DNA from: a virus
Lineage: Duplodnaviria > Caudoviricetes
Length of the DNA: 64,000 nt
Direction: 5' to 3' (one strand)
IMG/VR virus record: IMGVR_UViG_3300032167_000039
Under the pieces are notes generated by a model. The model saw only the letters and a list, made by a program, of their open reading frames with translations. It did not search any database and was not told the origin of the DNA. Within the stretch, counting starts at the first letter, position 1. The number at the start of each line of letters is the position of its first letter. Below are positions 23,194-61,328 of the stretch, piece after piece. A program made the translations under genes and the position numbers.

Positions 23194-23718
23194 ATGAAAG
23201 TTTTAGTTTGTGTAGATTGTCAAGTTGATTTTACTACCGGAGCTCTTGCAAATCCAGTTGCAGAAGAGAGAATTCCTGCAATTAAGGAGAGAGTTGCCGC
23301 CGCGCGAGAAAATCATGAAATGGTAATCTTTACTCAGGACACACATATGGAAAATTATATGGATACTCTTGAGGGCGAGAAGCTTCCTGTTGAACATTGT
23401 ATTTACCAGACAGAAGGCTGGGAGATTGTTGAGGAACTAAGAGATGAGGCAGCACTTTGCGTCCTGAAGCCTACTTTTGGCTCTTTCGATTTGATTGATA
23501 GGGTTGTTGCATTTCGTAATGCATTTAATGAAGATGTGGAGATTGAGCTATGTGGTTTTGTGACAAGTATTTGTGTTTTAGCAAATGCTGTTTTACTTAG
23601 AGCCGCGATGCCAGATGCTAAAATTATTGTTAATTCTAAATTGTGTGCGGATGTATCTAAAGAAAAGCACGAAGCTGCTTTAGAAGTTTTAAGATCTCAG
23701 CAGATTGATGTTATATGA
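23194..23718 (+). CDS. pncA: Nicotinamidase/isochorismatase-family hydrolase
   Basis: VDCQVDF, TQDTH, HC, K, SICV motifs. Confidence 0.75.
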   Translation: MKVLVCVDCQVDFTTGALANPVAEERIPAIKERVAAARENHEMVIFTQDTHMENYMDTLEGEKLPVEHCIYQTEGWEIVEELRDEAALCVLKPTFGSFDLIDRVVAFRNAFNEDVEIELCGFVTSICVLANAVLLRAAMPDAKIIVNSKLCADVSKEKHEAALEVLRSQQIDVI

Positions 23719-24422
23719 GTAAATTAATTGATCTAACTGGACAAAGATTTGGAGATTTAGTTGTTCTTGAAAGGGACATTAATAAACCAAAAGGTCGTGC
23801 ATATTGGATATGTCAGTGTGATTGTGGGAAAATTATTAGTACTCTTGGAACTCATTTACGACAAGGTAATTCAAAAAGTTGTGGTTGTAAAAGGAATTTT
23901 AAGGATTTAACTGGACAAAAATTTGGAAAATTAATTGTAATGGAATTATCAAAAAATAGAGATAAAGATAATTGTCATAAATGGATTTGCAAGTGCGAAT
24001 GTGGAGCTATAAAAGAGATTAGTCAACATGATTTGAGAAGAGGTGTGTCTTCTTGTGGGTGTGTAAGATCAAAAGGAGAGGAAAGAATTTCTCAACTATT
24101 AACAGAAATGAATATTCTTTTTAAAAGAGAATATTATATTAATGGATTTAAATTAACAACTGGAGGAGTACCTCATTTTGATTTCGCACTCTTTAATGAT
24201 AAAAATGACTTGATTTGTTTTATTGAGTATCATGGAGAACAGCATTATCAGGCACGAGGAAATATATTTACAGAAGAAAAAGTACAAATTATAAAAAAGA
24301 GGGATAAAGAAAAAGAGGAATACTGTATTTTAAATAATGTTCCTCTAAAAATAATTCCATATACAGATTTTAAACAATTAAATTGTGAATATTTAATGAG
24401 AATTTTAGCTGATGTAATTTGA
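23715..24422 (+). CDS. Homing-type endonuclease (DLTG..CxC..SCGC repeats + Vsr/DUF559-like nuclease)
   Basis: 2 repeats; FDFA..IEYHGEQHY..D..K..YC. Confidence 0.8.
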   Translation: MSKLIDLTGQRFGDLVVLERDINKPKGRAYWICQCDCGKIISTLGTHLRQGNSKSCGCKRNFKDLTGQKFGKLIVMELSKNRDKDNCHKWICKCECGAIKEISQHDLRRGVSSCGCVRSKGEERISQLLTEMNILFKREYYINGFKLTTGGVPHFDFALFNDKNDLICFIEYHGEQHYQARGNIFTEEKVQIIKKRDKEKEEYCILNNVPLKIIPYTDFKQLNCEYLMRILADVI

Positions 24423-25705: not shown

Positions 25706-25792
25706 AGTAGAAGAAATAGATAGGAAGTCATGAGCCTATTGACAAGCATCCTCTCCATGCTTTTCTTCTACTTTTATTTATATAGGAGAGAA
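25706..25792 (+). promoter_or_regulatory. Structured leader upstream of an endonuclease gene
   Basis: agtagaagaaa/tttcttctact stem, inner atagg/cctat hairpin, loop cctctcc complementary to downstream ggagag. Confidence 0.55.
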
Positions 25793-25818
25793 AATATAAA
25801 CAGGAAGGTGTTTATTAT

Positions 25819-26748
25819 ATGGGAAGATTAATTGATTTAACTGGGCAGAAATTTGGAAGATTAACTGTATTGGAAAGAGACTTAAGTAGAAAAGGAGCGT
25901 ATTGGATTTGTCGATGTGATTGTGGCAATATTAAGAGCATCTTGGGACAACATCTTAGGTCTAAGCATACACAGTCTTGTGGATGTCTACAAAAAGAGCG
26001 AACTTCTGAAGCAAATCTAAAAAATTTAGTGGGAGAACGTTTTGGAAAGCTAATAGTATTAAAAATTGATGATTCAAAAAAGGGGAATCAAGGTCAACTT
26101 TATTGGATTTGTCAGTGCGACTGTGGAAAAATAAAAAGTATATTAGGTACTGCATTGAAAAATGGAGATACAATTAGTTGTGGATGTTCACAAGAAGCAC
26201 ACAGACGAGCATTAATGGAAGAGTATGACTTATCTGGACAAACCTTTGGAAAACTAATTGTGGTAGAAAGAGATGAAATAGTATCAGGGGAAAGAAAGAG
26301 AGCACATTATTTATGTCAATGTGAATGTGGGAATGCTGTTATTGTAAGTGGGCAACATTTACGCAGTGGACATACTACCTCATGCGGTTGTAGTCTTTCA
26401 AAAGGAGAGTTAAAAATAATCGAAATACTTAAAAATCAAAAAATTAGTTTTAAAACACAATTTTCTTTTGATAATCTGAAAGGAGATAATAAAAAATTGC
26501 GTTTTGATTTTGCGATTATAAAAGATAAAGAATTAATATGTTTGATTGAGTATCAAGGCAAACAGCATTATAATAATTTAGATTTTTTTGGTGGAGAAAG
26601 TGCTTTAAAAAAACAGAAAAGATATGATGATTTAAAAAGAGAATATTGCAAAAATAATAATATTAAGTTAATTGAAATCCCATATTGGGATTATAATAAG
26701 ATAAATGCAGAATATCTGCTACAAAAAATTTTTGAGAGGGGTGAATAG
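25819..26748 (+). CDS. Homing-type endonuclease (3 repeats + Vsr/DUF559-like nuclease)
   Basis: Paralogue of 23715. Confidence 0.8.
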   Translation: MGRLIDLTGQKFGRLTVLERDLSRKGAYWICRCDCGNIKSILGQHLRSKHTQSCGCLQKERTSEANLKNLVGERFGKLIVLKIDDSKKGNQGQLYWICQCDCGKIKSILGTALKNGDTISCGCSQEAHRRALMEEYDLSGQTFGKLIVVERDEIVSGERKRAHYLCQCECGNAVIVSGQHLRSGHTTSCGCSLSKGELKIIEILKNQKISFKTQFSFDNLKGDNKKLRFDFAIIKDKELICLIEYQGKQHYNNLDFFGGESALKKQKRYDDLKREYCKNNNIKLIEIPYWDYNKINAEYLLQKIFERGE

Positions 26749-29115: not shown

Positions 29116-29191
29116 TGGAATGTCGGCAAGTGGCTAAGCCAGCAGGTTTTGATCCTGCCATTCGGGGGTTCGAATCCCTCCATTCCAACCA
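29116..29191 (+). tRNA. tRNA-Gln(UUG)
   Basis: Cloverleaf, CCA. Confidence 0.92.
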
Positions 29192-29229
29192 ACCAACCAA
29201 CTATTAATTACTTATTAAAGGTGATATTA

Positions 29230-29637
29230 ATGCAGACAAAAATTTGTACAAAATGTGGAAAGGAATATTCAATTGAAGAGTTTAATTGGAGAGATAAGAA
29301 AAAAGGAAGTCGCAGATCTGAATGTAAATATTGTCATTCTAAATATATGAGAGATAAATATGCACAGAAACAAAAGATAGTACAAGAATTGAAAAAAGAT
29401 TCTTATTGTGCGAAGTGCGGTGATACAAGAGAATATATCTTAGATTATCATCATATTGACCCTTCTATAAAAGAAAATACAGTAGCGAGATTGGTTAGTA
29501 ATTCATATGGTATGGATAAAGTTTTAGCTGAAATTGATAAGTGTATTTTACTTTGTGCAAATTGCCATAGAGAATTCCATTATTTTAATAAGGAGAAGAA
29601 TATTTCTTTAGAAGATTATTTAAAACAACTCACTTGA
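29230..29637 (+). CDS. HNH endonuclease
   Basis: CxxC pairs, LDYHHIDP..CILLCANCHREFH. Confidence 0.85.
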   Translation: MQTKICTKCGKEYSIEEFNWRDKKKGSRRSECKYCHSKYMRDKYAQKQKIVQELKKDSYCAKCGDTREYILDYHHIDPSIKENTVARLVSNSYGMDKVLAEIDKCILLCANCHREFHYFNKEKNISLEDYLKQLT

Positions 29638-29683
29638 CAAAAATCACGAAATGTGATATAATATTTATAGTGAGTTAAGAAAT

Positions 29684-29759
29684 GCGGGCGTAACTCAGTT
29701 GGTAGAGTATCGTCTTGATAAGGCGGAAGTCACAGGTTCAATCCCTGTCGCCCGTACCA
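29684..29759 (+). tRNA. tRNA-Ile(GAU)
   Basis: Cloverleaf, CCA. Confidence 0.92.
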
Positions 29760-29818
29760 TACTCTATTTGTTAGGTCTCTTAGGACACCAAGACCGGTGT
29801 CGGCAGATAGGGTAACCA
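29760..29818 (+). ncRNA. Small ACCA-ended pseudoknotted hairpin RNA
   Basis: 13-bp closing stem + ACCA; gacacc/ggtgtc hairpin whose loop aagacc pairs with ggtct. Confidence 0.5.
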
Positions 29819-29821
29819 AAT

Positions 29822-29898
29822 GCCGCGGTAGCTCAGTTGGTAGTAGCAGAGGACTGAAAATCCTCGTGTCGGCAGTTCGATTCTGCCCCGCGGCACCA
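29822..29898 (+). tRNA. tRNA-Phe(GAA)
   Basis: Cloverleaf, CCA. Confidence 0.93.
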
Positions 29899-29955
29899 AT
29901 AAAATCTTTGGCTCGGCGGTAGCCATTGATACCGCCACAACCTCTTTCTGAAGAT

Positions 29956-30033
29956 GCAGGTGTAGCATAATTGGTGAATGCACTCCCCTTATAAGAGAGC
30001 GATTGCTGAGTTCGAATCTCGCCACCTGTACCA
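29956..30033 (+). tRNA. tRNA-Ile(UAU)
   Basis: Loop CTTATAA, CCA. Confidence 0.85.
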
Positions 30034-30035
30034 TA

Positions 30036-30171
30036 AAGACATTAATAGCAAAGAACGGTCAGTAAAACCGCCGACGAAAGTCTACGCTAGTTCGAATCCA
30101 TGCCTTCCTCACCATTATATGAGGAAGTAGTCAAGTGGTTAAAGACAGCGGTCCGAACTAATAATGTCTTG
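30036..30171 (+). ncRNA. Y-like cassette 1: permuted tRNA-Tyr
   Basis: aagacatta/taatgtctt stem; GTA loop, variable arm, T arm, cttcctcACCA, linker, gaggaag, D arm, gcggtc. Confidence 0.85.
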
Positions 30172-30235
30172 AGTAATTAACCCACTTGACTTTTTATAAA
30201 AATTATGTTATAATATTTATAGAGAGTTGAGAAAT

Positions 30236-30310
30236 GCACCCATAGTTTAGTTGGAAAAACGGTAGATTTGTAATCTTCTGTCCCCTGTTCGAGTCAGGGT
30301 GGGTGCTCCA
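30236..30310 (+). tRNA. tRNA-Thr(UGU)
   Basis: Cloverleaf, CCA. Confidence 0.9.
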
Positions 30311-30375
30311 AAATTTCGCCAAGAAAACTTACCACGAAGAAGTTTAAATGGTTTATAATCGTGGAACCTCTTTCT

Positions 30376-30451
30376 GCGCCCGTAACTCAGTTGGTAGAGT
30401 ATCACACTTTTAATGTGAGAGTCACGAGTTCGAGCCTCGTCGGGCGCACCA
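30376..30451 (+). tRNA. tRNA-Lys(UUU)
   Basis: Cloverleaf, CCA. Confidence 0.93.
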
Positions 30452-30458
30452 TTTAAAT

Positions 30459-30534
30459 GCATCTTTAGCTTAGTTGGTAAAGCAACTGACTCTTAATCAG
30501 AAGACCATAGGTTCAAATCCTGTAAGATGCACCA
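30459..30534 (+). tRNA. tRNA-Lys(CUU)
   Basis: Cloverleaf, CCA. Confidence 0.92.
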
Positions 30535-30617
30535 GTCGAAAGGCGATATGAAAAGGATGGCGAGTGTTGGAGTAAGAAACAACCTCAACCCTGTCAACTT
30601 GGGTTAAAGTTGAATAT

Positions 30618-30712
30618 GGTGATGTGGGTGAGTCAGGCTTAAACCAGCAGATTGCTAATCTGTCGTCCGTCTTTATGGCGGACCGAAGGTTCGAATCCTT
30701 CCATCACCGCCA
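30618..30712 (+). tRNA. tRNA-Ser(GCU)
   Basis: Long variable arm, GCCA. Confidence 0.93.
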
Positions 30713-30713
30713 T

Positions 30714-30776
30714 AAGGCACATACAGCAAAATCTTAAGGAATAGTATTTTAAGCTGTGAATCTAAAGAGTGTCTTG
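30714..30776 (+). ncRNA. Y-like cassette 2: His-like anticodon hairpin
   Basis: aaggcac-atacagcaa...gtgtcttg; loop CTGTGAA. Confidence 0.7.
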
Positions 30777-30829
30777 ACTTTTTAAGAATTTTATGTTATA
30801 ATTATTACATAAAATTAAATATTAAACAT

Positions 30830-30902
30830 GGCGGGCTAGAGAAACGGTATCTCACCACCCTCATAAGGTGGAAATAAGTGGTTCGACTCCACTGCTCCGC
30901 AA
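30830..30902 (+). tRNA. tRNA (CAU) without encoded CCA
   Basis: ccacc-ctcataa-ggtgg, T arm; ends GCAA directly before a ribozyme. Confidence 0.8.
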
Positions 30903-30997
30903 CAGCATTTTCTTTACAAACCTCCACGTGGTAATGCTGGGGCAACGACACAATGGACGTGGGCTAGACACGACTCCACAGTGCGGCGAATGTAAAG
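30903..30997 (+). ncRNA. tRNA-adjacent HDV-like (theta-type position) ribozyme
   Basis: P1 cagcatt/aatgctg, P2 ctttaca/tgtaaag, P3 acc/ggt, L3 tccacgt, J4/2 ggCgaa. Confidence 0.85.
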
Positions 30998-31187
30998 CGT
31001 AATCTTTTCTACGATACAGAAAAGTGACTTCTGAGACTAACTAAGAAGGACTCATGGTTCAATAGGAGCTTAAAAATATAATCTTAGCGGAGACGGTTAC
31101 AATATTTCTGAGTCACGAAACGACAGGAAAGAAAATTAAAGATAGCTATCGGGTCGGTACACCTTGCTGCGGCAGAAGATACTACAT

Positions 31188-31262
31188 ACGGGTTTAGTTT
31201 AATGAAAAATGCCGACCTCCAAAGTCGTAAGATGATGGGTTCAAGTCCCTCAGCCCGTGCCA
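31188..31262 (+). tRNA. tRNA-Trp(CCA)
   Basis: Loop CTCCAAA, GCCA end. Confidence 0.85.
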
Positions 31263-31283
31263 AATACTTTGATAAAGTAATAT

Positions 31284-31362
31284 CGCCTCGTAGTTCAATT
31301 TTGGCTAGAGCATCGGATTGTCTCTCCGAAAGTTGTGGGTTCGAATCCCATCGGGGTGGCCA
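31284..31362 (+). tRNA. tRNA-Asp(GUC)
   Basis: tcgga-ttgtctc-tccga, GCCA end. Confidence 0.85.
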
Positions 31363-31437
31363 TAGGTTGTTTATTTCTCAATATTAGATTGAAGGGGTTC
31401 TCCAACCTTCGTAAAAAGAAGAACACATACATATATT

Positions 31438-31547
31438 AAGACACATACAGCCAAAGATTATTTATAATCTATTGTAGGTTCGATTCCTATCTTTTCAATT
31501 ATTTCGAAAAGTCGCCTAATGGTAGGGCAATTATTTAATGTGTCTTG
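31438..31547 (+). ncRNA. Y-like cassette 3: permuted tRNA body
   Basis: aagacacat/atgtgtcttg; T arm, loop-closed acceptor cttttc/gaaaag, D arm gcctaatggtagggc. Confidence 0.85.
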
Positions 31548-31553
31548 TTTTAT

Positions 31554-31631
31554 GGGGTAGTAGACGAGTGGTATTAAGTCATCACCCTCTCAAGGTGAAG
31601 ATCGTGGGTTCAAATCCCGCCTGCCTCACCA
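31554..31631 (+). tRNA. tRNA-Glu(CUC)
   Basis: Cloverleaf, CCA. Confidence 0.9.
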
Positions 31632-31638
31632 TTTAAAT

Positions 31639-31716
31639 GGCGCCATAGACGAGCGGTATAAGTCGCCACCCCTTCAAGGTGGAGAGCGTTGGGTTCAAAT
31701 CCCACTGGCGTCACCA
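31639..31716 (+). tRNA. tRNA-Glu(UUC), C at position 33
   Basis: ccacc-ccttcaa-ggtgg, CCA. Confidence 0.82.
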
Positions 31717-31717
31717 T

Positions 31718-31790
31718 TAGACACTTTCCAGCAATAAAATTTTAAGCTCTATTTATAAAAAGAACACTGCTTATCGTTCGAAGGTGTCTT
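31718..31790 (+). ncRNA. Y-like cassette 4
   Basis: agacacttt-ccagcaa...aaggtgtctt; inner loop TTTATAA. Confidence 0.7.
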
Positions 31791-31795
31791 ATTAT

Positions 31796-31869
31796 CGAGG
31801 AGTAGTTTAACGGTAAAATACTAGTTTTGGGAACTAGAGTCGGGGTTTCGACTACCCCCTCTTCGACCA
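31796..31869 (+). tRNA. tRNA-Pro(UGG)
   Basis: Cloverleaf, CCA. Confidence 0.88.
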
Positions 31870-31875
31870 ATAGAT

Positions 31876-31952
31876 GTGGTAGGTAGCTTAATTGGTAAAG
31901 CGCATGGTTGTGGCCCATGAAGCTGCGAGTTCGAATCTCGTCCTTCCACCCA
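31876..31952 (+). tRNA. tRNA-His(GUG)
   Basis: G-1:C73, CCA. Confidence 0.9.
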
Positions 31953-31986
31953 TACTATCTATAATTATTATGGAAAGTTAAGAAAT

Positions 31987-32069
31987 GCGGATATGGTGGA
32001 ATTGGTAGACACGCTGTCTTGAGGGGGCAGTGAGCAATCGTTCGGGTTCAAATCCCGATATCCGCACCA
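31987..32069 (+). tRNA. tRNA-Leu(GAG)
   Basis: Cloverleaf, CCA. Confidence 0.92.
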
Positions 32070-32184
32070 TTAACTTAGACGGCCGACTAAGTATAAATAA
32101 AGGGGTGCATGACGTTTTGCTGTTTTCCGAAGAGGGCATTAAAGACAGAAAAAACAGCATACTAAATAGAAAGGAGAGGTAGCT

Positions 32185-32688
32185 GTGAATACTAAAATAT
32201 TTCATCGAGGTAATGGCGAGCCTGTTACTTATAGTGAAATGATGAAGTTAATTGCAGACTATATTAGCAAAGATACAAATCAAGAGTATGAAATCACTGT
32301 TGGTACAGATAGCCAAAACCATAGTAAAACAAAAATGGTAGAAGTTATCGCAATCCACTGTGTTGGACATGGCGGCATCTTCTTCTATCGGACGGATTTT
32401 ATTCGAAAGATTAAATCTCTTAAAGAAAAGATATTTGAAGAGACTTCAAGAAGTCTTGAGAATGCTCAAGGATTACTTGATGAAGTTGGATTTATTCTTC
32501 TTGAAAAGGAAATTGATATTGAAGAGTTAAATCTTCATTTTAAAATCCATTGTGACATTGGTCATTATGGAAAGACTTCAACTCTAATTAAAGAGATTGT
32601 GTCTTGGGTTCATTCTTGTGGTTACGAAGCGGTAATTAAACCTGATAGTTACGCCGCCTCAGGAATTGCAAATAAGATTAGCAAATAA
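32185..32688 (+). CDS. RNase H-like YkuK/DUF458 family protein
   Basis: VGTDSQ, GGIFFY, EETSRSL, IHCDIG, IKPDSYAAS.IA. Confidence 0.85.
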   Translation: MNTKIFHRGNGEPVTYSEMMKLIADYISKDTNQEYEITVGTDSQNHSKTKMVEVIAIHCVGHGGIFFYRTDFIRKIKSLKEKIFEETSRSLENAQGLLDEVGFILLEKEIDIEELNLHFKIHCDIGHYGKTSTLIKEIVSWVHSCGYEAVIKPDSYAASGIANKISK

Positions 32689-32699
32689 AGGAGAATTAT

Positions 32700-32888
32700 A
32701 TGACAGATAAAGAGAAGCTTGATGCATTTTTTGAATATACTCTTGATGCTGAAAGATACTGGCGGCAAAGAGCAAAAGATGGATTTGATAAATACGTATG
32801 TGCTTATCATTTAATGGCTATACAGGATATTCTCCAGTTCGCAGAAGTGGAATTGGGTATACCATATAAGCAATTACCGCTTAATTAA
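32700..32888 (+). CDS. Small protein, paralogue of 33382
   Basis: MTDKEKLD..AIQDILQFAE. Confidence 0.6.
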   Translation: MTDKEKLDAFFEYTLDAERYWRQRAKDGFDKYVCAYHLMAIQDILQFAEVELGIPYKQLPLN

Positions 32889-33032
32889 ATAATGCTGCCC
32901 GTCCCGGGGCGTGCCCCTTCTCCATGCGACCCTCCTGTGTGGGCATAAATTGCGATGCAAATGTGGATATAATACGGGGAACTGATGTACAAGCAAGGGT
33001 TTCTATTTTGTCGTCATTTGGCGGCGAAAGAT

Positions 33033-33111
33033 GCGGGATTGATGGAATTTAGGTATACATACTTGCCTTAGAAGCAAGGTTTTAGGGGTTCGAGTCCCCT
33101 ATCCCGTACCA
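33033..33111 (+). tRNA. tRNA-Leu(UAG), short variable arm
   Basis: cttgc-cttagaa-gcaag, ACCA. Confidence 0.88.
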
Positions 33112-33113
33112 TT

Positions 33114-33238
33114 AAGACCTATACTGCAAACTTTCTTATATGCTTTGGGAGCCGTAGGTTAGAGGTTCGAGCCCTCTTCTCTCCACCAATATGGGGAGAT
33201 AGCTCAATTGGATAGAGCGACGTATTTAATGGGTCTTG
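33114..33238 (+). ncRNA. Y-like cassette 5: permuted tRNA with Pro (UGG) loop
   Basis: aagaccta/tgggtcttg; TTTGGGA, T arm, tctctccACCA, atat, ggggaga, D arm. Confidence 0.85.
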
Positions 33239-33243
33239 TTTAT

Positions 33244-33321
33244 GGCGGCGTAGCATAGTTGGTCAAATGCGACTGCTTCATACGCAGTAGACCATAGGTT
33301 CGAATCCTATCGCCGCCACCA
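33244..33321 (+). tRNA. tRNA-Met(CAU)
   Basis: Cloverleaf, CCA. Confidence 0.92.
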
Positions 33322-33381
33322 GTATGTTGACAAAACTTCCGAAATATGATATAATATTTATAGTGATTAAGAAAAGAGGTT

Positions 33382-33597
33382 ATGAAAATGAGTGATACAG
33401 AAGCACTTGATATTCTTCTTTCTTACATAGAAAGACTTGAGGATAATTATATTCAAATTTTATCAGAATGTAGTAATGAAGCATATCCTTTGTATAGCGG
33501 AGGACTTTCTGCGATTATGGATATATTAAATTTTGCAGAAAAGGATTTGGGATTGTTAGTTAAATGTAACCCACTTGACTTTTCTTCTGAAATATGA
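33382..33597 (+). CDS. Small protein, paralogue of 32700
   Basis: MSDTEALD..AIMDILNFAE. Confidence 0.6.
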   Translation: MKMSDTEALDILLSYIERLEDNYIQILSECSNEAYPLYSGGLSAIMDILNFAEKDLGLLVKCNPLDFSSEI

Positions 33598-33623
33598 TAT
33601 AATATTTATAGTGATTAAGAAAT

Positions 33624-33747
33624 GCGATTGTAGCCCAACAGGCAGAGGCAATGGACACAGGATTAAAAGACTTTGATTGGGGCAGTACCAATATCCTGTA
33701 CCATTAAAATCCATTTAGTGTGGGTTCGAATCCCATCAATCGCACCA
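33624..33747 (+). tRNA. tRNA-Leu(UAA) interrupted by a 47-nt insert between positions 32 and 33
   Basis: Removing 33657-33703 restores atgga-cttaaaa-tccat and a complete cloverleaf. Confidence 0.88.
33657..33703 (+). ncRNA. Nested mini-tRNA (acceptor stem + T arm + ACCA)
   Basis: acaggat/atcctgt 7 bp, attgg-ggcagta-ccaat, ACCA. Confidence 0.8.
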
Positions 33748-33749
33748 AT

Positions 33750-33826
33750 CTTCCATTAGCCCAATTGGTAGAGGCAATATGCTCAAACCGTATTCAGTCT
33801 CAGTTCGAATCTGAGATGGAAGACCA
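33750..33826 (+). tRNA. tRNA-Leu(CAA), short variable arm
   Basis: Loop CTCAAAC, ACCA. Confidence 0.85.
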
Positions 33827-33830
33827 TTCT

Positions 33831-33966
33831 AAGACCTTTACAGCGAAAAACTTTTTCTAAAAGAATTGCTTGTTAAGCCGTGTGTTGGAGGTTCGAATCC
33901 TTCCTCTGGATATGATCCAGAGTAGCTCAAGTGGTAGAGCAACGACCCTCTTAAGAAAAGGTCTTG
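33831..33966 (+). ncRNA. Y-like cassette 6: permuted tRNA-Asn
   Basis: aagaccttt/aaaggtcttg; TTGTTAA, T arm, ctctgga-tatga-tccagag, D arm. Confidence 0.87.
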
Positions 33967-33972
33967 TTAATT

Positions 33973-34048
33973 GGCTCTATAGCCAAGTGGGTTAAGGCGT
34001 CTGACTGCAAATCAGAAGTCCCCTGTTCGAATCAGGGTAGAGCCTCCA
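33973..34048 (+). tRNA. tRNA-Cys(GCA)
   Basis: U73-CCA. Confidence 0.92.
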
Positions 34049-34055
34049 ATTAAAT

Positions 34056-34130
34056 GCCCTCATAATACAAAGGATAGTATAGGGACCTTCTAAGTCTCAT
34101 ATTCCAGTTCAATTCTGGATGAGGGTACCA
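34056..34130 (+). tRNA. tRNA-Arg(UCU)
   Basis: Cloverleaf, CCA. Confidence 0.9.
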
Positions 34131-34133
34131 AAT

Positions 34134-34223
34134 GGCTGGGTGCCCAAGTGGTCATAAGGGCGTAGACCTGAAATCTTCTGTGGTGTAACAGCCCCGTGGG
34201 TTCGAATCCCACCCCAGCCGCCA
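34134..34223 (+). tRNA. tRNA-Ser(UGA), C at position 33
   Basis: Long variable arm, loop CCTGAAA, GCCA. Confidence 0.82.
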
Positions 34224-34371
34224 TAAACAATCGCCCGCCGCCGAAATTATTAGAGGAAGTTATTTACTTTTTCTAAAATTTTTTACAAAGAAAGTTCGGC
34301 GGCGAGTAGGTTGACAAAATTTTCAAAATATGCTATAATAGTTATAGTAAAGTTCGAAAGGAGAAATTAAG

Positions 34372-34503
34372 ATGAAGAGACGAGAAGATATTGTTTTGAG
34401 AATTGAGAAGTTGAAGACCAAGCCTGTGGAAAACGCAAGACTTATCCGTAAGTGGGAACGTATTCTGCGAAATTTCGATAGGGTTGATAATTCAAATACT
34501 TGA
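34372..34503 (+). CDS. Small basic protein (43 aa)
   Basis: Promoter + AAGGAG SD; MKRREDIVLRIEKLK... Confidence 0.55.
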   Translation: MKRREDIVLRIEKLKTKPVENARLIRKWERILRNFDRVDNSNT

Positions 34504-34539
34504 CTTTTCTTACGGAATGTGATTTAATTATATTAATGA

Positions 34540-34599
34540 AAGACGAAAACAGCAATCTTAAACATCTGATTTGGGATCTGATAAGTTAAATTCGTCTTG
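34540..34599 (+). ncRNA. Y-like cassette 7: Pro-like anticodon hairpin
   Basis: aagacgaa-aacagcaa...ttcgtcttg; loop TTTGGGA. Confidence 0.75.
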
Positions 34600-34605
34600 A
34601 TATTT

Positions 34606-34682
34606 GGGATAGTAGCTCTAACGGTTAGAGCAGGAAGCTGTTAACTTCAAGGCTATAGGTTCGAATCCTATCTATCCCGCCA
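34606..34682 (+). tRNA. tRNA-Asn(GUU)
   Basis: Cloverleaf, GCCA. Confidence 0.9.
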
Positions 34683-34686
34683 ATAT

Positions 34687-34760
34687 GCAGCATTGGTGTA
34701 ACGGTAACATCTCTGCCTTCCAAGCAGATGTTGGGGGTTCGAGTCCCCTATGCTGCTCCA
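34687..34760 (+). tRNA. tRNA-Gly(UCC)
   Basis: Cloverleaf, TCCA. Confidence 0.92.
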
Positions 34761-34765
34761 TTTAT

Positions 34766-34900
34766 GGGAGATAGCCTCACGCCCAGACCTAACCAGTCAA
34801 TAGGAAAACAACCTTGTAGGAACGGGCGGTAACTGGCGCCGTATAGTCCAGACGATTGTTGCTGTGATTGTTGGCAAGCGAAAGTAGGAGTGGTTCTCCA
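34766..34900 (+). ncRNA. Unknown structured RNA ending in CCA
   Basis: ggaga/tctcc closing stem; cgccc/gggcg and ccagt/actgg crossing helices. Confidence 0.5.
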
Positions 34901-34913
34901 AACAATCAAATAT

Positions 34914-35000
34914 GGGTAGATAAACCGTAAGTGGTAGCGGGTGTGACTGTAAATCACATGCCTTTGTGCTCGGGTGGTTCGACTCCATCTCTGCCCACCA
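34914..35000 (+). tRNA. tRNA-Tyr(GUA)
   Basis: Variable arm, ACCA. Confidence 0.9.
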
Positions 35001-35585: not shown

Positions 35586-35668
35586 AGACAAAGAGTAAAT
35601 AAGAGTAATTAACTTATGATGAGGTTCCTCATAGCCTTCTCTTTGTCTTTTTATTTTATATGAGGAAA
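35586..35668 (+). promoter_or_regulatory. Structured leader upstream of an endonuclease gene
   Basis: aagacaaagag/ctctttgtctt stem; loop ttcctcata complementary to downstream tatgaggaa. Confidence 0.55.
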
Positions 35669-35690
35669 TAAATATTATGAGGTGTTTATT

Positions 35691-36578
35691 ATGAGAAAGT
35701 GGGAAGCTTTTTCAGAGGAAGAATTGAGAGAAATTTATAATCAAAGCGCAAATAAACAAACTTTTGCTAAATTATTAGGGTACAAAGGTACAGACACTCG
35801 TTTTATTAAAGAAATACAAAGTGTCTATCCTTGGTTAATTTTTTTAAGGCATGAAGATTTAACAGGAAAGGTTTTTGGTAAATTAACTGTTCTATCAAAA
35901 AATAATGAATTTGGAGGTTCTAATCACTCATATTGGGATTGTCGGTGTGAATGCGGAAAAATAACAACAGTAAGAAGAGATGCTTTAATAGAAGGTAAAA
36001 CAAAATCTTGCGGTTGTAATTCTTATCGTGTGGCGGGCATTAAAAATATGGATGATTTAACTGGAAAGAAGTTTGGTAAACTAACTGTAATCAATAGAGA
36101 CTTTGAAAAAACAGACGCGAGTAAACAAGCATTTTGGTGGTGTGTTTGTGATTGTGGAGAAAAAATTTCTGTTGGAAGAGGCTCTTTAAAAAGTGGAGCA
36201 ACTCGTTCTTGTGGGTGCTTGAAATCAAAGGGAGAAGAAAAAATTTCTAAAATTCTTAATGATAATAAAATTCCTCATATAAAAGGATATACTTTTAATG
36301 ATTTAAAAGGAAAGAGAAATAAATTAAAATTTGATTTTGCTATTTTTGATTCCTTTCAATCTTTAATTTGTTTGATCGAATTTCAAGGTATACAACATTT
36401 TCAAGATATGATTGCTTGGCAAGGCTCTCTTACAGTTGATGAGCAAAAAGAGAATGATAAAAAGAAGAGGGAATATTGCCTAAAGAATAATATTCCTCTT
36501 ATTGAAATTTCATGTGAAGACTATGAAGAAATAAGTGCAGATTATTTATTGAGTTTAATATATCAAAAAGGAGAGTAA
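35691..36578 (+). CDS. Homing-type endonuclease (2 repeats + Vsr/DUF559-like nuclease)
   Basis: Paralogue of 23715/25819/59803. Confidence 0.8.
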   Translation: MRKWEAFSEEELREIYNQSANKQTFAKLLGYKGTDTRFIKEIQSVYPWLIFLRHEDLTGKVFGKLTVLSKNNEFGGSNHSYWDCRCECGKITTVRRDALIEGKTKSCGCNSYRVAGIKNMDDLTGKKFGKLTVINRDFEKTDASKQAFWWCVCDCGEKISVGRGSLKSGATRSCGCLKSKGEEKISKILNDNKIPHIKGYTFNDLKGKRNKLKFDFAIFDSFQSLICLIEFQGIQHFQDMIAWQGSLTVDEQKENDKKKREYCLKNNIPLIEISCEDYEEISADYLLSLIYQKGE

Positions 36579-40875: not shown

Positions 40876-41981
40876 ATGAGTAATGTAAGTAAAGTATTGG
40901 CAGAGCAAACGCTCGCAAAAAAGTTCGACTTCATTATGTTTATTGTAAACGAATTCGGAGAAGAGAAGTGCCAAACAAAAAAGGAAACAAAGAAAAAGTT
41001 TCTTGCAAGTTTTGGAGATAGTGATAGTTTTCGTGTAAAACTTGTTGATCGTTATCCCGAAATAATGGAGAATGATATCTTTTATATCGCAAAGAATGGC
41101 AAGGCAGTATGGATTAGAGAGGAGCTTGAGTAATGGCGAGAGTAAAGATTACAGACGAAGTGATTGAGCAGATTAATGAGCTTTACTGTGAGCTTAAGGT
41201 TAAATCTCATGTTGCCAAAGCTCTTGGAATTTCTGCTTCAACCGTAAGTAAGTATATCGTCCCAAATTATATCTGTAAAGCAGATAGAGTTGTTGAAGCG
41301 TTTAGCGGCCGCCCCAGCATAATTTCTATGGATAAGATTGCGTCATTTGACGGGGCGGCGCACTTGGGATATTTCCTTACTCATATTATGGACGATGAAA
41401 AGGAAGACATGGAGAAACTCCAGAAAGGAATTTTTATATGAGAGCATTTATGGTTAGTGAAGCTTGTAATGAAGGCGAATATATGGTGAGACTTACAGAT
41501 GAAATGTTCTCTCTGATGGGATGTCAGTCTGGAAGTTTTAACATTGTAGCGGCGAGAATTTTGGGATTTAGTTATCCTGACTATCTTCGATATGTGAGAG
41601 ATAATCACAATGCAATACTTAAGGGGAAGCAAGGCTATTCTTATGCGATTTATAAGGATAGAAAAGATTGTGTTGCAGTTGTAACATTGCTCAATGATAC
41701 TTGGAGAAAAGTTGAGGCGGCGATTATTAGTAAGATGAATGAGGTGACGAAAGGAGAGAATGGTTAATACATTAACAAGAATTGAATCGTGCATTGCTGA
41801 GCGCTCTTTCATTATTCCTGTTGGTAATAGCAAAGGGATTTCTCCCGAAGATATTGTACAAACAGTTTACATTGATCTCGCGACAGGGCGGCCCTATCAG
41901 GATGGTGCATTTGTTGCAAAAGGCGAAACATTTTGGAAGTGGACTCGTTCTGATGCTTGTAATGACAACATACCAGAGTAA
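40876..41981 (+). other. Operon of four small CDS (40876-41133, 41133-41441 HTH-like, 41438-41767, 41760-41981)
   Basis: Overlapping start/stop codons after a sigmaA promoter. Confidence 0.6.
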
Positions 41982-41999
41982 GAGAAAGGAGAAAAGGAA

Positions 42000-43346
42000 T
42001 TGAATGGAACGATAATTTATTGTAGATTTGAAACTGCAAAGGGAGAGTTTAATGAGCACACAAAAGAATATGCTTATTATGTTGCGGCGAGTCCTGAAGA
42101 TTGTATAATTAAAGAAGGAACTATCTTCAAAGTATGGAATATGGACAAAAATATACCAGAATATAACGGCACAAGGTTGCGATGCGACAGAATTGTTGGC
42201 GTAGAGAATAAAGCAGATGCAGAACTTCTGGAAAGCAAGTCACTTAAGACTATTGAGAGGATTAAGATTGCTGGAGAAAAAGTTTCAACAAATAAAAAAT
42301 ATATTAATCCATGGGTTTTAAATAAAATCGAAGACAATATGATAAAAACAATTGGAACAAAGAGTGCTGGTTTTACTCTTGGTGAAGCTGGTAAAGGAAA
42401 GGGTTTTACTTTTGGCGAAGAAATAATAGGCTTTACCCCTACTGGAGATGCGATTGATGCGATTGATGTATCAAAGGGAATTATCTCATATGATAAGATT
42501 GATGATACTGGCTATGCTTATAGTTGTGATGAAAATAAAATAAATACAATTAATTCAGGAGGAAATAATATGAATACAAATATGTTTGGCAATATGTTTA
42601 AGAATATGAAGTTTGGTAAAATTAAGACCGATGAAATCAAGTATTCAATGAAAGGAATCGCTATTGAGACAAATGATCATGACTATGTATGTTATAATCC
42701 TGATCTTACTTTTACCAATGTTGGCAATATGGTAATGGATATTCCAGTTTTTGCAATGCCTGTTAGCAAGGAGCAGATTAAGATTGGTGATGTAATTAGA
42801 CATAATGATCTTTGGGTAATCGTGAACTCTGTAACGCCCACTGAAATTAAGGTTGCAAGACCTTATACCAGAGAAATTGTAAGCGTAATTCCTGAGACTT
42901 CTATCTTTGGTTTTAGCTTCTACACAAAGGTAATGAATCCTTTTGAGAACCTTGGTGCTACTGCAACTGCTGATAATCCTTTTGGTAATATGCTTCCTTT
43001 TATGCTTATGAGTGGCGGCGATACTAAGAATTCTGATGATATGCTTATGATGATGCTTGCCTTTGGCGGCGGGAAGATTGATTTTAGTAATCCTATGATG
43101 ATGTATATGCTTATGGGAGATAAGAGTAATACAAATGATATGCTTATGATGATGATGCTCAGTGGCAACAACCCTTTTGAGCAGAAGCATGAGTGTAAGT
43201 GTGGTTGTAAAGCAGGAGATTATGTTGTTACTCCAAATAATTCTATTGATCCTTACTTTGGGGTAGACTGTGATTGGACACAGTTTGTGCCGACGAATGA
43301 GATTAAGATTGATGAAAGTGCTATGGATATTGAAACAGATAAGTAA
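42000..43346 (+). CDS. Hypothetical protein with Met-rich C-terminal half and in-frame internal start at 42570
   Basis: GGAGG SD before ATG 42570; poly-Met runs. Confidence 0.6.
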   Translation: MNGTIIYCRFETAKGEFNEHTKEYAYYVAASPEDCIIKEGTIFKVWNMDKNIPEYNGTRLRCDRIVGVENKADAELLESKSLKTIERIKIAGEKVSTNKKYINPWVLNKIEDNMIKTIGTKSAGFTLGEAGKGKGFTFGEEIIGFTPTGDAIDAIDVSKGIISYDKIDDTGYAYSCDENKINTINSGGNNMNTNMFGNMFKNMKFGKIKTDEIKYSMKGIAIETNDHDYVCYNPDLTFTNVGNMVMDIPVFAMPVSKEQIKIGDVIRHNDLWVIVNSVTPTEIKVARPYTREIVSVIPETSIFGFSFYTKVMNPFENLGATATADNPFGNMLPFMLMSGGDTKNSDDMLMMMLAFGGGKIDFSNPMMMYMLMGDKSNTNDMLMMMMLSGNNPFEQKHECKCGCKAGDYVVTPNNSIDPYFGVDCDWTQFVPTNEIKIDESAMDIETDK

Positions 43347-43439
43347 AATTAAAAGTCAACTCTCAAAAGGGAGTTGACTTTTTCTATATTTTATGGTATA
43401 ATTATTATAGTAAATGAGAAAAAAAGGAGTGATGTATAA

Positions 43440-44363
43440 GTGGCTGCGATTATCGAAATGTTAATCGGGCTTCCTTAGCCTGGTTGCGGTAAATCAACAT
43501 ATGCAAAAAATCTTATGAAGCAGAATCCCAATATTGTAGTTGTATCTTCCGATGCAATTCGCAAGGAGCTTTATGGTTCTGAAGAGGATCAGTCTCATAA
43601 TCAGGAGGTCTTTAACGAAGTTTTCAAAAGAACTTGCGCTGCGATTAAGAATAATAAGCATTGTATTATTGACGCAACTAATCTTTCTCGTAAGCGTAGA
43701 ATTGCTTTTCTTAAGCAGTTCAATAACTGCGAGAAGAGAGCTACTGTATTTGCAATCCCTTTTGAGGTTTGTTGTGAGCGTAATAATTCTCGTGAAAGAA
43801 CTGTTCCTCAGTATGCAATGGATAGAATGTATCGCTCTTTTGAGCCGCCGCACTGGGCAGAGGGATTTGATTTTATTGAAGTAATTCATTATGAGAACCC
43901 GGCCCTTTCTATTGAAGACGTGCTTGCAGAGAATATCAAGTGTGAACACGATAATCCCCATCATTCTCTTAGCTGTGGAAAGCATTGTCTTGCCGCAGAG
44001 GAAGCCGCAGGAATTATTTGTGAGAATGAATATTGGGATTCAGTAACGACTCATCTCATTGCCAAGGCAGCACGCTATCATGATATGTCTAAGTATAAGT
44101 GTAAGGTATTTCATAATATGAAGGGCGAACCTACAGATATTGCTCATTACTATAATCATGAGAATGTTTCTGCATATGACTATATGGCATATGAGGCGGG
44201 GATGGAGCCGGAGTATGATACAATTGTTATTGCAAACTTGATTGCAAATCATATGGTATTCTATACTGGTGAAGCGGCAATCCAGAAGAGAAGAGATATT
44301 TATGGAGTAGGATTTTGGTCAATGCTCGAGGTTTTGAATAGAGCCGACAGGGCAGCGCACTAA
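43440..44363 (+). CDS. Polynucleotide kinase (AAA_33) + HD domain, with in-frame TAG in the P-loop
   Basis: SD+GTG 43440, MLIGLP*PGCGKST, SSDAIR, IIDATN, HD, HE. Confidence 0.85.
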
Positions 44364-45642: not shown

Positions 45643-46719
45643 ATGCTTAATTTGCAGACTTTTATTCGTGAAAATGAAAACTGGAGAGAGCTTATTTCTG
45701 AGAAGCCCTATTGCATTAAGGTAACTGAAAAGGAAGATCTGGTCTGCTTTAAGTATTCTCAGATTGATTCCGATTTTAAGGAGCCTTTGGTAAGAGAGTG
45801 CCGCGGCATTATTCTTGAAAAGGATACTTGGAATGTAGTGGCCTATGCTTTCAATAAGTTCGGTAACTATGGAGAGTCTTACGCAGACGAAATCGACTGG
45901 GCTTCTGCTCGTGTTCTTGAAAAGGTAGATGGCTCTCTTATTAAGGTTTATTTCCATAATGGCGCTTGGTGTGTAGGTACCAATGGAACCATTGATGCAA
46001 GCGATGCAGAACTTTCTGCGCCGCCCTATGAAACCTTTATGGAATTATTCGATGTTGCGGCAGATGTGTGCGGTCTTGATTATGATAGACTTGATCCTCA
46101 TTATACCTACATCTTTGAACTTCGTTCTCCTTACAATAAGGTTGTAGTACCTTATGAAGATATTCGTATCGTCCATATCGGTACTCGTAACAACATTACT
46201 TATGAGGAAGTGGAGGTAGATATTGGTATTGAAAAGCCTAAGCAGTATATGCTTTCTTCTCTTGATGATTGTATTGCTATGGCGGCGACTTTTGACTTTA
46301 CACAGGAAGGCTTTGTCGTAGTTGATAAGAACTATCATCGTGTCAAGGTTAAATCTGAAGATTATGTTCGTGTACATCGTCTTGCCAATAACGGCTCTAT
46401 TACACTTGAAAAAGCGATTGACCTTATTCGTACAAATGAACTGGAAGAATTTCTTGTATATTGCCCTCAGTATACAGATTTTATCAATAATGTTCGTCTT
46501 CGTCTTGATAAATTCCATTCTGATATTTATTTTAATGTTAATATGGCACTGATCGAAAAAATGGATTGTGAAACTCGTAAGGATTTTGCGGCGGTAGCGA
46601 AAACCTTTAAGTATCCTATGGTATGGTTTAAAGTTTATGAAACAAAGTCTTTTGATATTGATGCATGGATTAACTCTTTAACTACAGCAAAGCTAGCTAC
46701 ATATCTTGAAAAGTATTAA
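45643..46719 (+). CDS. T4 Rnl1-type RNA ligase
   Basis: RECRGIIL, KFGN, EKVDGS, FEL, EGFVV, RVKVK. Confidence 0.9.
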   Translation: MLNLQTFIRENENWRELISEKPYCIKVTEKEDLVCFKYSQIDSDFKEPLVRECRGIILEKDTWNVVAYAFNKFGNYGESYADEIDWASARVLEKVDGSLIKVYFHNGAWCVGTNGTIDASDAELSAPPYETFMELFDVAADVCGLDYDRLDPHYTYIFELRSPYNKVVVPYEDIRIVHIGTRNNITYEEVEVDIGIEKPKQYMLSSLDDCIAMAATFDFTQEGFVVVDKNYHRVKVKSEDYVRVHRLANNGSITLEKAIDLIRTNELEEFLVYCPQYTDFINNVRLRLDKFHSDIYFNVNMALIEKMDCETRKDFAAVAKTFKYPMVWFKVYETKSFDIDAWINSLTTAKLATYLEKY

Positions 46720-59584: not shown

Positions 59585-59802
59585 AAATATATTGACTTTT
59601 TCCATGAATTGTGGTATAATAAATATAGAAAATGAAAAGAAACAGAAATAATAATCTACCAAATTGCAGATAGTTTTGTTGATGGAAATCGGAACTCATC
59701 TGATTAGTTGGTTCAATTATAATAAGCAAAGTATATATACTTTAACAATCTGATTTTATTATAATTTTATATCTTCAATCCCACATTTATTTAAAGGAGG
59801 GG

Positions 59803-60714
59803 ATGAAAATGGAAAAATGGAGAAAATTTTCTAAAGAACAAATTTTTGCCTTTTATAATCAAGCGAAAAATAAAACAAATTTTTTAGAATTAATGGGATA
59901 TAAATGCTATAATAAAAGTGCTTTGAAAAATATTGCTAATGAATATCCAGAGTTAGACCTTGAAGCTCTTTCTGCAAACAGATTTCAAGACTTAACTAAC
60001 CAATCATTTGGACGTTTAACTGTTTTATATAAAGATGAATTTAATTATAAAGATAGTAATATAACTCATTGGATTTGTCAGTGTTCCTGTGAGAATAAAA
60101 CAATTTTATCTGTTAGTCGTTCACACTTAATAAGTGGTCATACTAAATCTTGTGGTTGTCTTTCAAAAGAAAAGCATAGCAAAGATAAAAGAAAAAATTT
60201 AAAGGGGCAAAGGTTTGGAAAATTAATTGTGAAAGATATATCTCCAAGCAAAATTTCTCCAAATGGACGAAGTCATGCATGTTGGTATTGTGATTGTGAT
60301 TGTGGTAGAAAAAATATTATTGTTTCTACGGATGCTTTAAGACAAGGAAAAGAATCTTGTGGTTGTTCTTTCTCAAAAGGGGAGGAACGAATAGAGAGAT
60401 GGTTAATTGAAAATAATTTTAATTATCAAAAACAATTCTCTTTTGTGGAACTAAAGGGAAAGAATAAAGAGCTAAGATTTGATTTTGCAGTTTTTGAAAA
60501 CAATTCTCTGTTATGTTTAATAGAATATCAAGGTGAACAACATTATCAAGTAGTTGATATTTTTGATGGTGAAACGGGTTTTAAACAAAGACAATTAAAT
60601 GATCAAAAAAAGAGAGATTATTGTGATAAAAATAATATTTATTTATTAGAAATTCCTTATTGGAGTTATTCAAAAATAGAAAATATTCTCGAAGATGAAT
60701 TGATGGAGGGGTAA
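59803..60714 (+). CDS. Homing-type endonuclease (2 repeats + Vsr/DUF559-like nuclease)
   Basis: Paralogue; N-terminus shared with 35691. Confidence 0.8.
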   Translation: MKMEKWRKFSKEQIFAFYNQAKNKTNFLELMGYKCYNKSALKNIANEYPELDLEALSANRFQDLTNQSFGRLTVLYKDEFNYKDSNITHWICQCSCENKTILSVSRSHLISGHTKSCGCLSKEKHSKDKRKNLKGQRFGKLIVKDISPSKISPNGRSHACWYCDCDCGRKNIIVSTDALRQGKESCGCSFSKGEERIERWLIENNFNYQKQFSFVELKGKNKELRFDFAVFENNSLLCLIEYQGEQHYQVVDIFDGETGFKQRQLNDQKKRDYCDKNNIYLLEIPYWSYSKIENILEDELMEG

Positions 60715-60863
60715 GATGGAAAGACTTAAAGAGAAACTTATTGAACGAATGATGTCTGTGGTTAGAAGCCTTGACAATTCTTGTCTTAATGATAATCGAA
60801 TAGCCGCTTATTCAAAAGAACTTGAAGCATTGGCAAAAGCGTATGCTGTATTGGAGGGAAAGG

Positions 60864-61328
60864 ATGTTACATTATAAAGTTGGAAATTTATTGAATGCGC
60901 CCCAGAAGGTTATCGCTCACCAAGTAAATTGTCAAGGTAAGATGGGAAGTGGAGTTGCAAAAGCAATTCGAGATAAGTATCCTAAGGTTTATAAAGATTA
61001 TCTTACAGTTTGCAAATCAATCCCTCCAAAGGGTTTATGTGGACTGGCGCAAATAATCACAGATTCAGAGCGTGTTGTTGTAAATTTATTTGGACAAGAG
61101 TATTATGGGTATGATGGTAAAAGATATACTTCTTATGCATACCTTACTAAAGCCCTGGATAGAATGTTTTTCCTTTTAGATGATGCTGGCGATAGAGAAG
61201 TCGCTATTCCTTATAAAATGGGCTGTGATCGTGGTGGTGCTAATTGGGCATTTGTAGAGGAATTACTTAATGACTATAGTGAACTTTATAATGTCGATGT
61301 CTATATTTATTCTTTGGAGGGGTATTAA
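60864..61328 (+). CDS. Macro domain protein (ADP-ribose binding/hydrolase)
   Basis: IAHQVNCQGKMGSGVAKAI, MGCDRGGANW. Confidence 0.88.
   Translation: MLHYKVGNLLNAPQKVIAHQVNCQGKMGSGVAKAIRDKYPKVYKDYLTVCKSIPPKGLCGLAQIITDSERVVVNLFGQEYYGYDGKRYTSYAYLTKALDRMFFLLDDAGDREVAIPYKMGCDRGGANWAFVEELLNDYSELYNVDVYIYSLEGY

Follow-up and report, generated by a model that had tools for sequence, protein, structure and literature searches.

The stretch of DNA considered here (the window) comprises 64,000 nucleotides from a virus of the Caudoviricetes (Duplodnaviria; IMG/VR record IMGVR_UViG_3300032167_000039), and is phage DNA of 34% GC with nearly every gene on the + strand. At positions 43440-44363 of this strand, the open reading frame (ORF) and its profile matches reveal a kinase gene of 307 codons, which encodes an AAA_33 P-loop kinase domain and a C-terminal HD-type domain and is interrupted by one in-frame TAG. 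An initial annotation had described a Shine-Dalgarno (SD) sequence and a GTG at 43440 from which this TAG is read in frame with the rest of the gene, and that description proves exact. The SD sequence AAGGAG (43424-43429) precedes the GTG start at 43440, which opens a leader of 12 codons (V/M-AAIIEMLIGLP). Codon 13 is the TAG (43476-43478), past which the frame is open as far as the TAA at 44363. Identical proline codons surround the stop, as had also been pointed out: a CCT at 43473-43475, which encodes Pro12 and is proposed below as a take-off codon, and a CCT at 43479-43481, proposed as a landing codon. The rest of the Walker A motif, GCGKST (GGT TGC GGT AAA TCA ACA), lies at 43482-43499, and removal of six nucleotides indeed restores the canonical GLPGCGKST, which satisfies the pattern [AG]x4GK[ST].

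The match of the gene product to PF13671 (AAA_33) reaches 88.7 bits against a cut-off of 27, and among known structures the kinase domain is closest by sequence to the Clostridium thermocellum Pnkp kinase, PSTK and T4 Pnk. Scores against the Pnkp and PSTK equivalog models fall far under their cut-offs, so the substrate and activity of the kinase must be regarded as putative. An RNA ligase of the T4 Rnl1 family, the presumed partner of the kinase in RNA repair, is encoded 1.3 kb downstream on the same strand (45643-46719), and its proximity suggests an RNA-repair module. Upstream, a terminator-like hairpin with a T-run marks the end of the preceding gene (43351-43382, + strand) and overlaps a strong sigma-70-like promoter that serves the kinase gene (43374-43402, + strand; TTGACT-17-TATAAT, 11 of 12 matches plus a TG extension). 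The same promoter context is found in the related contigs L006, L008, L018 and L023.

A search of 5.8 billion proteins returned more than 1000 relatives of the kinase. Most close relatives have 305 residues and read IGI-PGCGKST, IAL-PAAGKST or IGL-PASGKT, and the stop-less relatives are two codons shorter than the window frame exactly at the insert point in Walker A. Some relatives have been recorded with 307 residues and the sequence GLPQPGCGKST, and in all three cases for which the DNA was looked up this protein requires that TAG be translated as Q. Further relatives are annotated from an internal Met right behind the P-loop. The stop site occurs at the same place in 14 further metagenome contigs, which brings the stop-bearing sequences to 15 with the window; their sources are Logan, ENA, IMG/VR and JGI, and one related contig is labelled as gut metagenome. 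IMG/VR held a single relative, and the GenBank phage collection yielded nothing at the DNA level and, at the protein level, only distant matches (30-34% identity). After clustering of the close proteins at 90% identity, the stop is present in 26 of 98 clusters, and in none of the 98 are the two extra codons present with a true sense codon. About 70 stop-less clusters are without exactly these two codons, and none of them tolerates a two-residue insert there. An alignment of homologues, which the initial annotation had recommended as a check on the six-nucleotide insert, thus reveals its conservation both in the 14 other contigs and across the clusters, so the refuting outcome that the annotation had named, an insert confined to this genome, did not arise.

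The variation among the stop-bearing sequences is narrowly confined. CCT-TAG-CCT is identical in 11 contigs that come from different samples and assemblers (the window, L001-L006, L008 and L014-L016), and the ten others among these share the DNA ATCGGGCTTCCTTAGCCTGG. Contig L022 carries the variant CCT TAG CCA GGT TCT GGA AAG. A second lineage (L017, L018 and L023), in which protein identity is only about 57%, has CCT-TAA-CCG within the DNA ATG CCA GCA AAA TTA ATT ATT TTA GTT GGC ATT CCT TAA CCG GGA TGC GGA AAG AGT, the product of which reads MPAKLIILVGIP-stop-PGCGKSS. The take-off codon is therefore CCT in 15 of 15 sequences, the stop is TAG or TAA, and the landing codon is CCT, CCA or CCG, a purely synonymous variation. 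The base 3' of the stop is C in all 15, and changes in the remainder of Walker A are mostly synonymous. Among the uninterrupted relatives, P0060 reads MAAIIEMLIGLPGCSKST, which is the very junction that a hop over the stop would be predicted to yield. At a position neighbouring this junction, GCSKST replaces GCGKST both in L003 (620-640, with the stop) and in P0060 (without it), which places a Ser at the invariant Gly before Lys, and P0033 reads GCEKST. Such alleles could encode kinases without activity, or could be sequencing variants.

A stop flanked by matched codons is not unusual in itself. The window holds seven cases of this kind, which is about the number expected by chance; besides the kinase site they lie at 421, 32167 and 41979 on the + strand and at three places on the - strand. 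Thus, the significance of the kinase site derives from the comparative data and not from the motif alone. The sites at 32167 and 41979 were rejected as stop-hop sites because they are ordinary stop-SD-start junctions. At the latter (41979-41981, within the region 41760-43346), GAG TAA GAG separates ORFs of 73 and 448 codons in the same frame, and the counterpart in L004 is a single ORF of 567 codons reading EEKGEKEL. A good SD sequence and a TTG start behind the TAA indicate that this is probably a junction of two genes, with the L004 form a fusion. Chance matches of short patterns in unrelated genes also account for contigs L007, L009, L010 and L019-L021, which were set aside.

Several observations bear on whether the interrupted gene is maintained. 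Apart from the stop, all 15 stop-bearing DNA sequences are intact over 307-315 codons. Constraint was assessed at 82 columns with a conservation of 95% or more in the stop-less proteins, where deviations amount to 0.94% in stop-bearing and 0.71% in stop-less sequences (p 0.31); for the kinase domain the corresponding rates are 0.57% and 0.65%. When the TAG-type and TAA-type forms are compared over codons 10-19 (G, L/I, P, stop, P, G, C, G, K, S), seven codons differ, and all of these differences are synonymous or stop-to-stop, bar one change of L to I. Downstream of the stop and ahead of the first internal start, the TAA lineage also has a 3-nt indel. The start codon itself alternates between ATG and GTG among relatives at an unchanged position, which fits a real start. 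Together, the intact frames, the synonymous changes, the ATG/GTG toggle and the 3-nt indel argue that translation yields a single protein containing both leader and P-loop. Conserved reinitiation at the internal ATG, which lies at 43515 in the window, was rejected because this codon is without a counterpart in L003 and L022.

The stop belongs to a near-invariant 5' module on the + strand (43421-43483 in the window) that consists of the SD sequence AAGGAG, a spacer, the start, the 12 leader codons, the TAG and CCT GG. From SD to CCTGG, the TAG-type module measures about 66 nt, and it is identical, but for the A or G of the start codon, in the 11 CCT-TAG-CCT contigs wherever it is covered (L005 begins inside it). 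The L022 module has two more differences, one in the spacer and the other at the third position of the landing codon, beyond which it diverges. The module stands behind at least three unrelated upstream contexts; the flanks and the downstream codons vary, and divergence sets in right after the module. On a tree of the gene body, the stop-bearing alleles are scattered, and well-supported branches force at least 10 changes of state. Contig L014, for example, joins the TAG module to a body like that of P0017.

In L002, an endonuclease gene (8733-9695, 320 aa) immediately precedes the kinase, with its TAA placed right against the kinase GTG. Its PHROG matches are to HNH endonuclease, homing endonuclease and intron-encoded nuclease families (E 3e-34, 9e-30, 2e-22 and 3e-16), and L003 carries the same gene. 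Only the last 46-48 endonuclease codons are left in L014-L016, and L017 retains a remnant of 45 codons that is 73% identical. Such C-terminal remnants without a start codon can be seen at 430-660 in L015, 94-237 in L014 and 9760-9894 in L017. In L015, a short ORF (MSFIEERGEMKQKIIIVFLIISH, read up to its stop) overlaps the remnant in another frame across an A-run, an arrangement more suggestive of endonuclease decay than of frameshifting. The kinase promoter is also present in L015, where it is followed by the endonuclease remnant bracketed by TATAGTAAA repeats, and by comparison the arrangement in the window looks like a deletion derivative. Thus, the kinase start in relatives is directly preceded by an endonuclease gene or what is left of one, and the stop module is found in many backgrounds; both observations are new. 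We can state with high confidence that the insert is conserved and has a link to a mobile element. The scar of an intron or intein, one alternative that the initial annotation had offered, was right in spirit as the footprint of a mobile element and wrong in kind, as a homing-endonuclease cassette is indicated. The suggestion in that annotation that bypass ties the synthesis of polynucleotide kinase (PNK) to the status of tRNA or release factors is without support.

The window itself contains four endonuclease paralogues with matches to the PHROG HNH/homing-endonuclease families, one at 25786-26748 on the + strand and others at 23709-24422, 35664-36578 and 59746-60714. They are 34-38% identical to the L002 endonuclease, and none lies beside the kinase. 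The C-terminus of the paralogues shows a Vsr/PD-(D/E)XK-like EFDGxxH...IRIPY motif, and the N-terminus is built of repeated Cys-rich modules. Directly behind the paralogue at 59746-60714, a short ORF begins with an ATG at 60716 (region 60716-60870). A phosphatase-like gene (phrog_335) follows in another frame, with a profile match that begins only at position 51 and a strong SD-ATG at about 60864. This gene may be a second target that has been rearranged beside an endonuclease.

These observations can be assembled into a scheme in which the six nucleotides, a stop and a proline codon, would be an old heritable insert in the P-loop DNA of a phage RNA-repair kinase. The proposed cassette would consist of a freestanding homing-endonuclease gene upstream of the kinase start together with a replacement 5' end for the kinase. 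By analogy with T4 gene 60 and its MobA endonuclease, the insert would interrupt an endonuclease target in the conserved P-loop DNA and so leave its carriers uncut. We infer this target near the P-loop, and the immunity that the insert would confer, from that precedent and from geometry, in that the insert lies 36 nt from the endonuclease stop codon. Homing with co-conversion would then spread the module into many kinase backgrounds, and the endonuclease might later be lost, as in the window, while the insert stays.

During translation, peptidyl-tRNA-Pro would sit on CCU in the P site with the stop, followed by C, in the A site. Some ribosomes would fail to terminate; the tRNA would unpair and then re-pair six nucleotides downstream on CCU, CCA or CCG, and decoding would resume at GGN. 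Nine nucleotides would thereby specify one proline, the product would carry the canonical G-L-P-G-C-G-K-S-T, and the kinase would stay functional. In E. coli, termination is weakened or slowed both by a C-terminal Pro and by a C that follows the stop, and slow termination in the context Pro-stop-C would give time for re-pairing. The codon pairs CCT/CCT, CCT/CCA and CCT/CCG all specify Pro and are readable by one tRNA-Pro(UGG), which the phage encodes (31796-31869, + strand) and which may be the tRNA that hops. It belongs to an array of 25 tRNA genes at 29.1-35.0 kb (29116-35000) that covers most amino acids and also includes a tRNA-Ile(UAU). A special tRNA-Pro was rejected as an explanation because this tRNA looks ordinary, with a normal cloverleaf, a 7-nt anticodon loop and G37. 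A local hairpin on the + strand (43462-43486, UAAUCGGGCU-UCCUU-AGCCUGGUUG) has the take-off codon in its loop and the stop and landing codon in its 3' arm, with a dG of -12 kcal/mol and z of -4.2 (29 nt). When the hairpin was compared between contigs, z was -2.7 in the window, -2.3 in L017 (in a different register) and 0.08 in L022, and the structure was weak in L002. A search of Rfam for a conserved RNA element gave only sub-threshold noise.

The programmed hop over the stop that the initial annotation proposed survives every comparative test that was run, although it is still a proposal drawn from sequence. We consider the chance roughly even (about 0.5) that the insert is decoded by a +6 hop of peptidyl-tRNA-Pro and that it resides within an endonuclease-protective cassette. 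The more ambitious statement, that this would be the first natural in-frame stop-hop (CCU-UAR-CCN), that its gap evolved as self-immunity to an endonuclease, and that it represents a minimal and independent counterpart of gene 60 and MobA, is put forward tentatively, at somewhat less than even odds.

Among the competing explanations, the one that deserves the most careful consideration holds that the module is a null allele of the kinase under endonuclease drive. Translation would end at codon 13, the cassette would spread by super-Mendelian homing even though it destroys a dispensable kinase, at most a fragment with the HD domain would be made by reinitiation, and the intact look of the genes would result from recent conversions. 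The link of the module to a homing endonuclease and its presence in many backgrounds fit this account, as does the near invariance of its nucleotides, which recent spread predicts. Most alleles have internal ATG or GTG codons, and PNK is dispensable for T4 on most hosts. Yet no internal start is conserved, the conserved kinase columns have no excess of changes, and most carriers have a decayed endonuclease or none at all, while all 15 DNA sequences and all 26 clusters retain an intact kinase ORF. Moreover, two diverged module types, which differ at about one third of their nucleotides, both keep the stop, the flanking prolines and the P-loop with nearly only synonymous differences, and changes in the landing codon are synonymous only. 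A null allele also gives no reason why a stop plus a repeated codon should occur in both lineages, and on balance we regard it as unlikely, if worth serious attention. Less probable still is simple readthrough, by which a near-cognate or suppressor tRNA would decode UAG or UAA to give G-L-P-X-P-G-C-G-K-S, a working P-loop with two added residues, perhaps at a low yield that could be regulatory. Readthrough keeps the frame just as hopping does, would equally be favored by the poor termination context Pro-stop-C, and agrees with the Q that gene callers already supply under code 15. But UAA, the least leaky stop in bacteria and the commonest terminator here, occurs as well as UAG, and the 25 tRNAs of the window include no suppressor. 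The Walker A pattern [AG]-x4-G-K-[ST], which the hop product meets as G-LPGC-GKS, is broken by the readthrough product P-XPGC-GKS, in which Pro would take position 1, where relatives have G, A or S. If any residue X were acceptable, some lineage would be expected to have exchanged the stop for a sense codon, but none has, and the two-residue insert is absent from every one of the stop-less clusters. The confinement of the extra codons to alleles with a stop, the fit to Walker A, the use of both TAG and TAA, the shared reading by tRNA-Pro(UGG) and the junction in P0060 together favor a hop over readthrough.

The remaining explanations carry far less weight. It is very improbable that the six nucleotides are removed before translation, either by cutting of the mRNA and resealing by the phage ligase or by slippage at the CCT repeats of the DNA in a fraction of the population. 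The gene does sit in an RNA-repair module with a ligase, the insert is in or next to a hairpin loop, and an uninterrupted form with the same leader exists (P0060). However, excision of 6 nt from an mRNA matches no known enzyme, and the direct repeat is only 3 nt long and is missing altogether from the CCT/CCG and CCT/CCA variants. A genome-wide reassignment of TAG to Gln, of the code 15 type, might be suspected because recoded phages are common in gut samples, because pipelines have called relatives with TAG as Q, and because TAG terminates only 3 of 71 + strand ORFs of at least 100 codons. A scan of the whole window, its tRNA list and the TAA variant lead us to reject this idea as barely credible. 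Within the 64 kb, no gene other than the kinase requires TAG to be read as sense, the three long ORFs that end in TAG include an endonuclease paralogue, and none of the 25 tRNAs has a CUA anticodon. Stop-less relatives have no codon at the site rather than CAA or CAG. Furthermore, the orthologous stop is TAA in L017, L018 and L023, and TAA ends 52 of the 71 ORFs, so a reassignment specific to one codon cannot explain a variant that uses the main terminator. Finally, the initial annotation had allowed for an assembly error or a pseudogene. An error of sequencing or assembly, or a pseudogene private to this genome, has in its favor only the prior expectation for an in-frame stop, and its probability is negligible. 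The insert recurs in 14 other contigs, independently assembled in different projects and with variation around it, which excludes an assembly error, and the recurrence together with otherwise intact frames excludes a private pseudogene.

A number of points weigh against a protective cassette decoded by hopping, and these must be accounted for when the proposal is evaluated. No clear stimulator was found among those sought (nascent peptide, take-off stem-loop or SD sequence in the gap). The nascent peptide, at only 12 residues, leaves no room for an exit-tunnel signal. Conservation of the hairpin is inconsistent, and the structure would be unfolded with a ribosome on it. Synthetic stop-hops that operate without stimulators were reported at low efficiency (PMC5009743). 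In the window, no endonuclease adjoins the kinase, and a promoter takes its place. The GCSKS sequence in L003 and P0060 may in itself be damaging to the kinase. As the module moves between phages horizontally, much of the signal of purifying selection downstream could predate each acquisition, in which case the intactness of the gene could reflect recency. The search was also limited by length, and more damaged gene fragments would escape it, which is a source of ascertainment bias.

Known systems provide useful points of comparison. In T4 gene 60, the bypass insert disrupts the recognition site of MobA and prevents self-cleavage; it travels with the endonuclease and outlasts its decay (bioRxiv 10.1101/2022.08.31.505936). 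The kinase site resembles this case in that a phage gene for a conserved enzyme carries a non-coding insert that starts with a stop right behind the take-off codon, that lies between matching take-off and landing codons, and that is missing from homologues. Similarly, a freestanding homing-endonuclease gene adjoins the gene (here in relatives), the distribution is a patchy mosaic, and the endonuclease decays while the insert persists. The two differ in that the gap measures 6 nt here and 50 nt in gene 60, the presumed re-pairing is from Pro CCU to CCN instead of at Gly GGA, and the interrupted gene encodes a kinase P-loop and not a topoisomerase. Moreover, the nascent peptide at the kinase site has 12 residues, no gap SD sequence or well-conserved take-off stem-loop was found there, and bypassing is a prediction from the DNA. 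The L002-type endonuclease matches the same PHROG HNH/homing-endonuclease families as MobA, but it has the Vsr/PD-(D/E)XK-like EFDGxxH C-terminus, and homology to the Mob proteins is not established.

Hopping over a stop has precedents of another kind. Synthetic stop-hops in E. coli, with matched codons around a stop, decode 9 nt as one amino acid (Weiss, Dunn, Atkins, Gesteland 1987; PMC5009743). They share with the kinase site the matched codons that flank the stop and a product that is two residues shorter than the readthrough product, but they were engineered, work at low efficiency and are used by no gene. A 2016 review by Atkins and colleagues knew of no natural in-frame stop hopping (PMC5009743), and a literature search for reports of natural stop-hops after that review found none. 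The closest natural short bypass is that of the Streptomyces phage Hau3 terminase, for which a 10-nt bypass triggered by UUA has been proposed (PMC10732093). There, too, a short insert in a phage gene is absent from counterparts and is proposed to be skipped at a slow A-site codon; in that case, however, a rare sense codon acts as trigger and bypassing brings the ribosome back into frame, whereas the kinase site would involve a stop and an in-frame hop. Gut phages that read TAG as Gln also present in-frame TAG codons that pipelines translate as Q, but at the kinase the codon is confined to a single site, is TAA in a sister lineage and is accompanied by no suppressor tRNA in the window, where TAG still terminates. 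As for the enzyme, an AAA_33 kinase domain with an Rnl1-family ligase nearby is reminiscent of the RNA-repair kinases Pnkp and T4 Pnk, although its C-terminal domain is of the HD type and that of T4 Pnk is a HAD-type phosphatase.

Some features of the relatives deserve brief mention. Their RNA-repair gene set is unusually rich, with a second RNA ligase (PF09414) beside the Rnl1-type enzyme, Metallophos phosphoesterases and a DUF2828 gene (Ro-like, RNA-binding); these extras lie at 14810-15748 in L011, 3237-4169 in L017 and 13204-13545 in L002. Also, the phage contig L018 carries a gene for a BrxL-like (BREX) ATPase (37-1458) located 1.5 kb upstream of the stop-bearing kinase.

To our knowledge, the only systems that make use of translational bypassing are T4 gene 60 and its relatives, yeast mitochondria and, probably, the Streptomyces phage terminase, and one-codon stop-hops have since 1987 been confined to engineered constructs. 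Should the kinase stop instead prove to be a null allele, it would be a clear case of a selfish endonuclease that spreads a loss-of-function allele through a phage population. If the hop is real, genes of this type would be prone to being miscalled as truncated, pseudogenic or 'code 15', which would be a warning for annotation. The module of about 66 nt, with its 12-residue leader, would then offer a minimal system for the choice that ribosomes make between termination and re-pairing. It would also mean that bypassing has on more than one occasion been co-opted by homing endonucleases as a means of self-immunity.

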